From Promethearchaeota archaeon (lineage in GTDB: Archaea; Asgardarchaeota; Lokiarchaeia; Sigyniarchaeales; SOKP01), in assembly GCA_019057865.1 (NCBI GenBank), contig JAHLWP010000049.1:1-24630 (forward strand): a stretch of DNA of 24,630 nt, in the 5' to 3' direction. Position 1 is the stretch's first letter, and the number at the start of each line of letters is the position of its first letter. The position numbers and the translations under genes were made by a program. This document shows positions 3,481 to 7,306 of the stretch, piece after piece. The notes below the pieces were generated by a model. That model was not told where the DNA came from and made no database searches. It saw only the letters and a list, made by a program, of their open reading frames with translations.

Positions 3481-4323
3481 GTGGTTGGACTTCAAGTTTT
3501 CAAAATTCTACCCGATGGTACGACTACTGAAATTACTACCGATAAACCGATAAAAGACGTTTTAGAAACTAATGAGTGCTACGTTATTGTTGCTGATGAA
3601 GTTAGAAAAGTATATCTCTGGAAAGGAATCACAAGTAACGTTAGATCCAAATTCATTGGAGCTAAACTAAGCCAAGAAATCAGAGGACAAGTTGGTTTAC
3701 ATTATGCTGTACTTCCACTTGATGAGGGTGAAGAAGAACCAGAATTTATACAGTTGATTGGCGGAAAGACAGAAGCAGGTCATGCAAAAGAGATTAAAGC
3801 ACCAGTTACTCAAGCATCAGCTCCAGCGGTGCATCCTTTAAAGGGAAAAAATATTTTTGGTACTCCAAGACCAGCTGAAGGGATGAATATAGCAGGAAGC
3901 AAAGAACGTGCTGCTTTAAATAGAGGACCTTTATATACTGGAGAAGGTTCCATGGCAGCTCTTATGCGAGATGAAAGCCAAGTAGATTTTCAAGGTGTTA
4001 TGAAAAAATTAGAAAAAATTCAGATACCTGCTGGTTTTGAAAGAGAACTTATCATTATTGGAAATCAAGCGTATTCTGTTGTTGAAAAGGTTCAGCAATT
4101 TTTAGGTAAGAAAGAAGTTACAAAAGAGATATCAAAAGTAGGGTCCATTCCAGAAGGGATCTTTTTTGCTGAGGACTACTCACCTCGCATTTTGTCAGAA
4201 AATGGAAAAATTATTGCTATTGAATTTTTAAAACGCGCTGGTGTACCAATAAAACCAGTACAATCAAAAAATAAAAGAGAAATCTTAAAAGAACAAATTA
4301 AAGAGCAACTTGGGGGAAATTAG
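3481..4323 (+). CDS. Asgard gelsolin-domain protein (one gelsolin domain, linker, C-terminal extra domain; 1DGelX-like)
   Basis: N-terminal LETNECYVIV...KVYLWKGITSN...KFIG...LDEGEEEPEF is a gelsolin repeat. GTG start preceded by GAGGT. Confidence 0.85.
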   Translation: MVGLQVFKILPDGTTTEITTDKPIKDVLETNECYVIVADEVRKVYLWKGITSNVRSKFIGAKLSQEIRGQVGLHYAVLPLDEGEEEPEFIQLIGGKTEAGHAKEIKAPVTQASAPAVHPLKGKNIFGTPRPAEGMNIAGSKERAALNRGPLYTGEGSMAALMRDESQVDFQGVMKKLEKIQIPAGFERELIIIGNQAYSVVEKVQQFLGKKEVTKEISKVGSIPEGIFFAEDYSPRILSENGKIIAIEFLKRAGVPIKPVQSKNKREILKEQIKEQLGGN

Positions 4324-4548: not shown

Positions 4549-4953
4549 TTGTTGCAGCCAAAATTGTCCGATTTATCACCACAAGAAGCTCAAAGTTTAA
4601 GTAAGTTTTTAGGTAGTATAACTGAATACACAGAGTTAGAAGCCCTAGCTTTGGTGACTCGTGAAGGCTTACGCTTAGCATTTTCATGTGTTCCTGGGTA
4701 TAACATAGATCCTGATTTATTTTCAAGCCTTAGTGCTGTAGTTATGCAATCTGGCTATGACGCAGTTAATTCTCTTGGATATACTCATATGCTTGAAGTA
4801 GTATTGAGAGGAGAAAATGGATTTATAATTCTCTCAGCAGCCGGAAGATTCTTTCTCATGGGTGCTTCAAGACAAACTGCAGATTTGGGTAAAGTAGTCA
4901 CGGTATTCAGATATTACGCAGGAGAGATCTCTAAACGATACCCAATGTCATAA
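4549..4953 (+). CDS. Roadblock/LC7 (MglB-like) domain protein
   Basis: EALALVTREGLRLA, DPDLFSSLSA, EVVLRGENGFIILSAAG and a terminal helix LGKV...FRYYA; 134 aa; TTG start. Confidence 0.85.
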   Translation: MLQPKLSDLSPQEAQSLSKFLGSITEYTELEALALVTREGLRLAFSCVPGYNIDPDLFSSLSAVVMQSGYDAVNSLGYTHMLEVVLRGENGFIILSAAGRFFLMGASRQTADLGKVVTVFRYYAGEISKRYPMS

Positions 4954-5143
4954 TTTTTTAACCTTTATTAAAAAAATCATTAAAAAAAATTTTAGTAGAA
5001 TATCTGTTAGGAATTAAAATTTTAGAATCAATTATGATTTTCAAGTTAAATCCCCATTATTGTGTTATTATAAAAACACTTATTTTAAAAAAGATAAATA
5101 TATTAATTTATAGATAGTGTAAAAATAAATTTGAGATTTTATC

Positions 5144-7306
5144 ATGCCAGAAATTAAAATTTTTGTCGATGTGAATGACGAAATTACAAATAAAGTTGTA
5201 ATCTGTCAATCAAATGCCGATAAATTAGGAGTTAAAAATGGGGGGTCAATAGAAGTTGTAAATCCTGATAATAACTTAAAGAAAACTGCAACTTTAGAGA
5301 TATCTGATATGGTGCTAGATTTTGCAGGGCAAGTTGCCAAAAATGTACTTGATGATTTACAATTTAGCGGAGTTGAATTAGCTATTCGCCCAGTAAGTGC
5401 AGCATCATCCCTTACACCTATGTTAAAAATTCCAAAAGTTCCAGCACCAAAACCAACTCCAACACCTCAACCATCCCAACCATCTACTTTATCTCCATTA
5501 CCTACACCACCACCTAGTGTAACTCCATCCCCTCAACCTACACCTGAACCAACTTTTACACCAGCTCCCGTTCCCCAGCCCATATCAACTCCACAACCGG
5601 CACCAGTACCTCAGTTTAAGCCACCTCCTCAACCCACCCCCACCCCTCAACCATCATTATCCCCTTTGCCTACTCCCCCTCCTCAGCCAACTCCTGCTCA
5701 ATTCACTCAACCATCTATGGGACAGCCTTCAATAGAACCCGTAGCTCCAGCAGAACCATATCCAAATAGAATAGATCTAAATATGTTACAAAGTCAGAAA
5801 AATGGAATAATTTTAACATCAGTTATTGATAATTCTATAGAAGGAGGGCGAATACAACTGAGTAATTCCATTATTCAACGATTAGGTCTAGGACAAGGAA
5901 TGCTTATAGCATGGGAAGATCCATTAACACGAGCTATGGGCTCAGCAAGAATAGATGCAGCAAATATTTTAGATACTCAAATTAAAATGAGTTATGATAC
6001 TAAAGAAGATACAAACATTCACTCACAACAAATTGTTGTTTATTCCACAGAACCTCCAATACAAAAAGCTTCGGAAATAATGCTAGAGGTTCAATCACAA
6101 CCTAATTTGATGGGACATGCTTTAGTTAGCCCAAGAACTCAATATACACTTTCAATAATGCAAGATGATATACTTGCATTTGAAGATGAATTAACAGGAG
6201 CGATCGGAGCTGGTAAAGTTGAAATCTTAGAATCAGTGGCAGATAATACAATTATTATCGATAGTGAAATTCTTGAAGCCTCAGGTATCGGGAGCTTTGA
6301 GGTTAAAGTTTCAAAAAATCAAAGAGCTATTATCCCTCTACAAAATATTTCGCTAGGAATTTCCCCTATTTCGGGTGAAAATATGTGGGAAATTATAAGT
6401 ACTGCTCGACAAAATGTAGCATCCTTAAAAGGCTGGATCTCGAATTATATTATTTTCAAGGGTATTAAACTTAGATGGTCAGCAGTCAATATTGCTTGTT
6501 CAATTCTTAATACTGTTCCTGATCTTACCGGAGATATTTTCGCTAAGGTCACAGAAAATACAGCATTAAGTTTAAGTCCAACTGGGTTGGTCCCTTTTAA
6601 CGCTATTTTGATAATTGATATCAGCCGTTCGATGATGGCGAGGGATGTGCTCTGCATAAACATTGCTCCCGCCATTGAGGGGATAAAAGCCGCAATGGAA
6701 TCTAGAGAAGTCCAAGAATTTTTAAAACATTTCAAAGATGGCATTTACATACCCCGTAGAATATCAGCAGCATTCGCAGCTGTACTCTTCTTGAGCGAGA
6801 AAGTAGGGAGAGGTTTTGGAGAAAAGGTCTCAATAATACGCTTTGCGGACGAAGCACAAATACTCCCCTTTGGAAATTTATTTTATATGGATTCTGCAAG
6901 TGGTAAAAAAGGAGTTCTTGAAGATGCAGCAAGGTTGATCGTCGATAGAATCGGCAATGCCTATGGGCAAGCTACAGCAATGGGTGCTGGAATGATGAAG
7001 GCTAACCAGGTGCTAGGAGAGTTCCAAAAAATGAGCCCAGACCAGCCGACGATGATCGTGCTTTTGACAGACGGTATAGCTACGGACGGGACGCTGTTTC
7101 TTGATGAAATCAAAAAACTGGCAGATAATGTACACGTCGTTATGTACATTGTTGGCCTAGGAAACCCAGATCGGGAACTGATGCAGCGTGCAGCGTCTTT
7201 ATGCGGCGGCGAATATTTTGAGCCGGAAGATGCTGGAGAACTGTTAATATGGTATTCAAAGCGAGCAAGAGATCTAACAGTTAAGCTTAAAGCGCATAAA
7301 GGTTAG
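5144..7306 (+). CDS. vWA-domain protein with CDC48-N-like (double-psi barrel-like) repeats and a proline-rich linker
   Basis: C-terminal vWA with intact MIDAS (DISRS at aa 492; T in QATAM; LLTDG; YIVGLG; GGEYF). Three N-terminal repeats of the type VVICQSNADKLGVKNGGSIEV. The vWA call is strong; the CDC48-N call is moderate. Confidence 0.75.
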   Translation: MPEIKIFVDVNDEITNKVVICQSNADKLGVKNGGSIEVVNPDNNLKKTATLEISDMVLDFAGQVAKNVLDDLQFSGVELAIRPVSAASSLTPMLKIPKVPAPKPTPTPQPSQPSTLSPLPTPPPSVTPSPQPTPEPTFTPAPVPQPISTPQPAPVPQFKPPPQPTPTPQPSLSPLPTPPPQPTPAQFTQPSMGQPSIEPVAPAEPYPNRIDLNMLQSQKNGIILTSVIDNSIEGGRIQLSNSIIQRLGLGQGMLIAWEDPLTRAMGSARIDAANILDTQIKMSYDTKEDTNIHSQQIVVYSTEPPIQKASEIMLEVQSQPNLMGHALVSPRTQYTLSIMQDDILAFEDELTGAIGAGKVEILESVADNTIIIDSEILEASGIGSFEVKVSKNQRAIIPLQNISLGISPISGENMWEIISTARQNVASLKGWISNYIIFKGIKLRWSAVNIACSILNTVPDLTGDIFAKVTENTALSLSPTGLVPFNAILIIDISRSMMARDVLCINIAPAIEGIKAAMESREVQEFLKHFKDGIYIPRRISAAFAAVLFLSEKVGRGFGEKVSIIRFADEAQILPFGNLFYMDSASGKKGVLEDAARLIVDRIGNAYGQATAMGAGMMKANQVLGEFQKMSPDQPTMIVLLTDGIATDGTLFLDEIKKLADNVHVVMYIVGLGNPDRELMQRAASLCGGEYFEPEDAGELLIWYSKRARDLTVKLKAHKG
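5432..5764 (+). repeat. Low-complexity Pro/Thr/Gln coding linker with a duplicated PTPTPQPS..LSPLPTPPP motif
   Basis: About 110 aa of P-rich sequence on a C-rich + strand; the motif occurs twice. Confidence 0.85.

Follow-up and report, generated by a model that had tools for sequence, protein, structure and literature searches.

Cdc48-type N domains joined to a von Willebrand factor A domain in an ATPase-less Asgard protein, a candidate docking partner of a ligase-hydrolase gene set

What does a Cdc48-type N domain do in a protein that has no ATPase? The question is raised by the open reading frame (ORF) at 5144-7306 of a 24,630-nucleotide stretch of DNA from a Promethearchaeota archaeon (class Lokiarchaeia; GenBank assembly GCA_019057865.1, contig JAHLWP010000049.1, positions 1 to 24,630), in the following called the window. 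Among cultured organisms, Lokiarchaeia count as some of the closest relatives of eukaryotes. Usually the Cdc48/NSF-type N domain is the head with which an AAA+ unfoldase receives substrates and adaptors, but in Asgard archaea it occurs also as a free-standing module in company with a von Willebrand factor A (vWA) domain that bears a metal ion-dependent adhesion site (MIDAS). The protein encoded here, P0001, consists from the N- to the C-terminus of a double-psi beta-barrel (DPBB), a proline-rich linker of 119 aa, a second barrel, a complete p97-type N domain formed by a third barrel and a beta-clam, and the vWA domain (Table 1). Our answer is a tentative one: P0001 may be a cytoplasmic, non-enzymatic, multivalent docking protein of an Asgard ligase-hydrolase gene set, a reading that we consider plausible and somewhat short of probable. 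It starts from the observation that the short relatives of P0001, made of N domain and vWA, are co-inherited and mostly co-located with a GCS2-type ligase and an Amidohydro_2-type metal hydrolase.

The fold was predicted with two AlphaFold2 models, covering residues 1-92 and residues 200-490 of P0001. The first model (pLDDT 82.3) contained one beta-beta-alpha-beta x2 unit, the second (pLDDT 91.2, pTM 0.77) two such units followed by a beta-alpha-alpha-beta-beta-beta unit. The initial annotation of this DNA had pointed to three similar segments as parts of double-psi barrels (residues 17-38, 236-257 and 325-346). Each of them forms the strand-helix-strand core of a separate modelled barrel, and the N-terminal repeats do model as double-psi barrels in the AlphaFold and Foldseek comparison that had been proposed. 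The top Foldseek match of barrel 1 was the Nn barrel of p97 (TMq 0.80, root-mean-square deviation (rmsd) 1.4 Å, 83 columns), and isolated DPBBs of archaeal VCP-like ATPases were also among its top hits. For the model of residues 200-490, the best 50 PDB matches were N domains of p97/Cdc48, NSF and Pex1/Pex6 (E around 1e-9, about 180 columns), with a TM of 0.73 to the isolated p97 N domain. VIA-align placed residues 309-483 of the protein (110-284 of the model) on residues 21-190 of p97, both Nn and Nc lobe, with Z 16.6 and an rmsd of 2.4 Å for 161-165 residues; a segment formerly described as Nc-like (454-477) lies within the Nc part of this alignment. An exhaustive search of representative structures returned CDC48A (Z 15.8), PEX1 (Z 15.6), NSF (Z 14.7), Sec18 (Z 14.5), Pex6 (Z 13.2), VAT-N (Z 13.0) and Ufd1 (2yuj, Z 12.4, 159 residues aligned). 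The N domains of Cdc48/p97/VAT, NSF/Sec18 and PEX1/PEX6 thus have the same two-lobed fold as P0001 (Z 13-16.6, rmsd 2.4-3.8 Å, about 150-165 residues). Among the three barrels of P0001, the third alone has an Nc lobe packed on it.

Profile comparisons with hhalign indicate that the three barrels are mutual homologues (barrel 1 versus 3, E 2.5e-16; 2 versus 3, E 2.6e-15; 1 versus 2, E 3e-8), and residues 309-483 align with the seven Cdc48-type N domains encoded in the same genome (probability 95.6 %, E 1.1e-8, 143 columns). Alignments A1-A3 were built from the collected relatives of P0001. The A2 profile matched DPBB constructs from VCP-like ATPases, Cdc48, TER94 and NSF in the PDB (E 1e-3 to 1), and the family profile retrieved genuine Cdc48 ATPases from other genomes. 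In Pfam, VWA was the sole family recognised in P0001 (31.1 bits versus a cutoff of 23.8). The N-terminal 480 residues had no family hit, and neither the protein nor its pieces reached the cutoffs of CDC48_N (PF02359) or CDC48_2 (PF02933). Relatives gave sub-threshold CDC48_N/CDC48_2 matches (E 7e-4 to 7e-3, including one to CDC48_2), while residues 16-50 of P0001 showed a faint match (E 0.09) to Molydop_binding, whose members are double-psi barrels too. The absence of a Walker A motif, as first reported, was confirmed by a motif scan, which also found neither GK[ST] nor a Walker B-like motif. Strongly hydrophobic segments were absent beyond the first vWA strand, as was an N-terminal signal-like stretch. 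In comparison with the Cdc48, NSF and PEX1 ATPases, which continue with the AAA+ domains D1/D2 after the N domain, P0001 has the vWA domain in this place; it differs from the AAA-type N-domain proteins further by the two extra solitary barrels and by remaining below the Pfam cutoffs. Tandem N-type domains are also present in PEX1/PEX6. The genome encodes in addition three near-identical lone Cdc48-type N domains (Nn and Nc lobe, 171-186 aa) without ATPase.

Barrel 1 had been described as set apart from the others by about 110 proline-rich residues, in agreement with the linker length given above. The 125-residue stretch 80-204 contains 46 prolines. In 98 relatives the linker measures 67-187 aa (median about 117 aa) with 35 % proline, is rich in P/T/S/Q and has almost no charge. 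Conserved in it are IPKVP (residues ~95-100 of P0001) and usually two L[ST]P[LM]P motifs, which in P0001 read LSPLPTPPP (residues 116-124 and 172-180); the rest of the linker outside the IPKVP and LSPLPxPPP motifs is variable. The linker DNA has no underlying tandem repeat of note, and its strong negative GC skew is expected from CCN codons. For the vWA domain, an intact MIDAS and an insert of about 35 aa had been claimed. Both are borne out, the insert being nearer to 40 aa: the MIDAS residues of P0001 (D492-x-S494-x-S496, T611, D643) are invariant or nearly so in the family. In a search of the PDB to E 10, the nearest matches of the vWA profile were ordinary MIDAS vWA domains, including the archaeal 5a8j; DEPDC5, Sec23/24, Rpn10 and Ku were all unmatched. 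A C-terminal MIDAS vWA serves as docking module also in the vWA partners of MoxR-type AAA+ proteins and in BchD/ChlD. BchD/ChlD combine an acidic/Pro-rich linker with a vWA domain, a likeness to the linker and vWA of P0001. Unlike these systems, P0001 has barrels and not an AAA+ module at the N-terminus, and a MoxR-type or other AAA+ gene was not present among the 17 ORFs of the window.

To our knowledge, DEPDC5/Iml1 is the sole described protein that combines an NSF/Cdc48-type N domain without ATPase and a vWA/Sec23-trunk-like domain. The N-terminal domain (NTD) of DEPDC5 resembles the N domain of Sec18/NSF, and its SABA domain resembles Sec23 (PMC8534245; also PMC9646525). P0001 could be the archaeal counterpart of NTD-SABA and act as a DEPDC5/Iml1-like regulator, with a roadblock protein, on a small GTPase. 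The domain order is that of the NTD-SABA part (PMC8534245) of DEPDC5/Iml1 (Sea1) in GATOR1/SEACIT, the NTD aligns to residues 310-480 of P0001 (9o5a_B, Z 10.6, rmsd 4.0 Å, 157 aa; 9xzy_H, Z 9.5), and the gene directly next to that of P0001 codes for a roadblock protein. Yet the AAA-type N domains match far better (Z 14.5-15.8), the vWA profile finds classical MIDAS vWA domains and never DEPDC5 or Sec23/24, and the genome contains no match to Pfam IML1 (PF12257) at E<=10, so that a link on the sequence level is missing. The intact MIDAS, the extra barrels and the Pro-rich tether set P0001 apart from DEPDC5/Iml1. The SHEN, DEP and C-terminal domain (CTD) parts are lacking, as P0001 ends with the vWA domain, and the window has neither a longin nor a GTPase gene. 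The apparent partners differ as well, being ligase and hydrolase for P0001 and NPRL2/3 for DEPDC5. We regard such a regulator as quite improbable.

A word-index search gave 437 relatives of P0001, and in the best 120 of them the identity over residues 200-720 was never below 80 %; the names of the homologues referred to Promethearchaeota/Lokiarchaeia and other proteins from Asgard metagenome-assembled genomes. An exhaustive search among 1.84 billion proteins yielded just 40 representatives at 50 % identity. Nearly all source names were Asgard, the exceptions being one row from Korarchaeota and one partial row from Thermodesulfobacteriota. Judged by this provenance, the Cdc48N-vWA family is Asgard-specific, and P0001 ranks among the most conserved lineage-specific proteins of Lokiarchaeia. 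Full-text literature searches, including recent Asgard structure-survey papers, returned no description of the family or of the ligase-hydrolase gene set. The distribution was surveyed in 301 Asgard genomes of 30 families (f-labels), and 195 genomes had a family match. The long three-barrel form (650-770 aa, single-copy) is confined to the class of the window, families f1-f3. A short form with N domain and vWA (430-510 aa, frequently with two to four copies) is present in f8, f9, f10, f21, f24, f28 and f29, with source names including Jordarchaeales and Freyarchaeota. Both forms are homologous across N domain and vWA at 23-40 % identity, and the long form of Lokiarchaeia is an enlarged, relocated orthologue of the short protein. 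Barrel 1, the Pro-rich linker and barrel 2 are additions with respect to the short form; the long form is also single-copy and far more conserved (>80 % identity within the family). Weak family-profile matches in f4, f7, f16, f17, f22 and f27 were rejected as further members: in five genomes (f4, f7, f16, f17) they were Cdc48-length ORFs with a match to the barrel alone, and the two of these five that were scanned with Pfam were both true Cdc48 ATPases.

In several classes, the short-form genes adjoin genes for an Amidohydro_2 protein of about 500 aa and for a protein of about 1150-1240 aa with a GCS2 carboxylate-amine ligase domain; additional N-domain/vWA paralogues lie nearby. Across the survey, the ligase was present in f1, f2, f3, f8, f9, f10, f21, f24, f28 and f29 and in none of the other 20 families. 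These are exactly the families with true N-vWA proteins (10 of 30), so that the N-vWA proteins and the ligase have the same phyletic pattern. The long-form gene (DPBB/vWA) shares this vicinity in basal lineages of the window's class. At locus L052, one same-strand array contains the genes for a gelsolin-domain protein (Gel), a roadblock protein (Robl), DPBB/vWA, a 575-aa-type protein, ligase, amidohydrolase and a 352-aa-type protein; at L045, DPBB/vWA, ligase and amidohydrolase stand in a row; and at L042 the enzyme genes are immediately upstream of the DPBB/vWA gene in opposite orientation. In family f1, unlike the short form, the long form has moved off from the enzymes to the Gel-Robl genes, with 11-106 kb between the DPBB/vWA and enzyme loci, both on one contig. 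In the genome of the window, contig C53 carries a ligase that is 41 % identical to the N-terminal part of the giant ligase, and the amidohydrolase (39 %) comes directly after it. Ligases of other Asgard classes, with about 1150-1240 aa, are twice as long as the Loki enzyme.

The tight co-inheritance of the protein with an ATP-dependent amide ligase and with a metal hydrolase suggests that there may be a reversible modification system. The N domains of p97, NSF, PEX1 and Ufd1 hold protein or peptide partners. In a docking subunit of this type, the N-domain cleft and the solitary barrels would likewise hold a putative protein or peptide partner, and the MIDAS would grip a carboxylate of the partner via Mg2+ or Mn2+. 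N domain and MIDAS together would present the target to ligase and hydrolase, of which the former would write and the latter erase an amide-linked modification. Two extra barrels on a long tether may provide more reach and valency in Lokiarchaeia, and the Gel and Robl neighbours may mark the site or the target of action, such as components of the cytoskeleton or of a GTPase platform. Candidates for partners are thereby named: the two enzymes, Gel and Robl.

Several points weigh against this docking function. The ligase and hydrolase of the same genome are on another contig, and nothing links them to P0001 within the window. The co-occurrence on the family level reflects few independent gain and loss events, as related genomes are not independent. 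Barrel 1, the linker motifs and the adjacency to Gel and Robl are missing from the short form, and the ligase-hydrolase module does not explain them. Finally, three genomes of genus g10 (L043, L044 and L009, one of them a single 4.4-Mb contig) have the DPBB/vWA proteins P0135 and P0136, while neither ligase nor amidohydrolase was found in this genus with the queries used. Since the gene is kept there without detected enzymes, it should have a ligase-independent role too; its retention after Gel and Robl suggests such a second role. Other features of g10 speak for the docking function. The identity of the DPBB/vWA protein in g10 is down to 24-25 %, compared to 40 % for Gel, 59-60 % for Robl and 42-45 % for YjeF, and it is 49-52 % in the sister genera g12 and g13, which have kept the ligase. 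The MIDAS of g10 is altered, with DxTxS/T and a replacement of Thr by Ser or Met. This pattern is as expected if the enzymes constrain the MIDAS and much of the protein surface.

The function first proposed for P0001 was that of a substrate adaptor for a CDC48-like unfoldase or the proteasome, thus a Ufd1/Rpn10-like protein bringing proteins, perhaps with a ubiquitin-like tag, to Cdc48 or the proteasome. Ufd1 shares the N-domain fold and is itself an adaptor that binds ubiquitin and lacks an ATPase; as in P0001, its UT3 domain is an N-domain fold used as binding module outside an ATPase. The genome has four full Cdc48 genes. Some short relatives (P0144, P0151, P0154; L074 7001-8614) carry an N-terminal YukD-like beta-grasp domain of the ubiquitin fold directly before the N domain (Pfam YukD, E 1.2e-6 for P0154 and similar for P0144 and P0151), which may hint at binding of beta-grasp domains by the N-domain cleft. 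The proposal did not hold up well on other counts. SHP boxes and an Npl4-binding region are features of Ufd1, which lacks a vWA domain, whereas P0001 has the vWA and none of those motifs: a regex scan of P0001 found no SHP, VIM, VBM, UIM or HbYX motif, and Pfam no UBX, PUB or UIM domain. The 24.6-kb window with its 17 ORFs holds no gene for an AAA+ protein, the proteasome or the ubiquitin system. Cdc48 is present also in Asgard families without the N-vWA protein, and the patchy distribution of the latter parallels the ligase and amidohydrolase instead. The N domain of p97 receives adaptors and does not itself dock onto the ATPase. Fused, longer relatives, for example an ATPase-fused form, did not turn up in the search, which is weak evidence. 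A role at Cdc48 or the proteasome appears improbable; the term adaptor may be apt, but for a different machine.

Upstream of P0001 and on the same strand are the genes of Gel and Robl (Table 1). The gelsolin domain of Gel matched Loki 2DGel (E 3e-6), the Thor gelsolin-like protein 7c2f and CapG. Its C-terminal domain (residues 166-254) was present in 269 of the 301 Asgard genomes and had no meaningful match among PDB sequences; the linker between the two domains contains the conserved motifs HPLREK and GPLYTG. Robl was assigned to Roadblock/LC7 by Pfam and by solved Roadblock/LC7 proteins. Its ORF has no ATG and the orthologues begin with MSDL..., which corresponds to the TTG at 4564, so that the gene probably extends from 4564 to 4953 (129 aa). 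The order Gel-Robl-DPBB/vWA was found in 14 of 16 long-form loci from different genera, in most of them preceded by YjeF.

This neighbourhood suggests a scaffold on an actin/GTPase platform, in which P0001 would act with Gel and Robl and the linker motifs would recruit profilin-, SH3- or WW-like partners, tying cytoskeletal regulators together. The gene order persists at identities of 40 % for Gel and 24-25 % for DPBB/vWA, also in g10 where the enzymes were not found, and IPKVP and the two LSPLPxPPP motifs are conserved in an otherwise variable linker. A Gel orthologue (f21, L058 4544-5425; 32 % identity over the full length) is located some 3 kb away from a short-form cluster of amidohydrolase, N-vWA and ligase, a case seen in three genomes of one genus from another class than that of the window. 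An actin-related operon is downstream, adjacent just in part of family f1. On the other side, Gel and the Cdc48N-vWA family are not co-distributed (269 of 301 genomes versus 195), and the synteny may be inherited, as the block conserves YjeF just as well. Because this housekeeping repair gene is equally kept and the Gel, Robl and DPBB/vWA genes are spaced by AT-rich gaps of 190-225 bp, synteny by itself says little about function. Loki profilins reportedly do not bind polyproline, which also counts against such a scaffold. A complex prediction of Gel, Robl and residues 205-720 of P0001 gave an ipSAE of 0.01 against a mark of 0.32 and provides evidence neither for nor against binding. Overall the scaffold is rather unlikely, while it stands ahead of the Cdc48/proteasome adaptor and the DEPDC5-like regulator. 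The four readings, including the preferred docking subunit of the ligase-hydrolase set, are not mutually exclusive. One combination would see in the Asgard Cdc48N-vWA proteins the stock from which the NTD-SABA part of DEPDC5/Iml1 arose, with the long form working on a roadblock GTPase platform under control of a reversible amide tag; we consider it a long shot.

Table 1. Positions of P0001, its parts, the neighbouring genes and related genes elsewhere in the same genome. Coordinates refer to the window unless a contig or locus is named.
Feature	Residues	Position	Strand	Basis or remark
P0001, whole gene		5144..7306	+	720 aa; ATPase-less Cdc48N x3 - vWA protein
Double-psi beta-barrel 1	1-85	5144..5398	+	AlphaFold2, Foldseek, hhalign
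Pro/Thr/Ser/Gln-rich linker	86-204	5399..5755	+	Composition, conserved motifs
Double-psi beta-barrel 2	~219-301	5798..6046	+	AlphaFold2, hhalign
Double-psi beta-barrel 3, Nn lobe of p97-type N domain	~309-391	6068..6316	+	Model, fold matches, hhalign
Nc beta-clam lobe of N domain	~396-483	6329..6592	+	VIA alignment to p97
vWA domain	~484-720	6593..7303	+	Pfam VWA, MIDAS residues
MIDAS D492/S494/S496	492-496	6617-6631	+	
MIDAS T611	611	6974-6976	+	
MIDAS D643	643	7070-7072	+	
vWA insert of ~40 aa between strand 1 and helix 1	~498-537	6635..6754	+	Nearly invariant in the family
Gel		3481..4323	+	One gelsolin domain (residues 9-96) and a conserved C-terminal domain of ~90 aa
Robl (Roadblock/LC7), ORF		4549..4953	+	Pfam, solved Roadblock/LC7 proteins
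Stand-alone N domain		L003 1486-1998	+	
Stand-alone N domain		L006 1261-1779	-	
Stand-alone N domain		L007 1441-1998	+	
Ligase-hydrolase cluster		C53, L079 5364-11704	Same strand throughout	575-aa unknown, 582-aa GCS2-like ligase (L079 7120-8865), 514-aa amidohydrolase homologue (L079 8900-10441), 352-aa unknown

Two further observations concern the family and the composition of the DNA. In f9 (L063-L073, e.g., L070 10634-13270), ORFs of about 870-890 aa face the amidohydrolase/N-vWA pair; they match the N-domain profile with E 1e-10 to 1e-16 and belong to no Pfam family. The window as a whole, which codes for gelsolin-, roadblock- and actin-family proteins, has a G+C content of 26-38 %, and within positions 5001-7000 the G+C content of the gene is 0.37-0.38 versus 0.26-0.33 in the surroundings.

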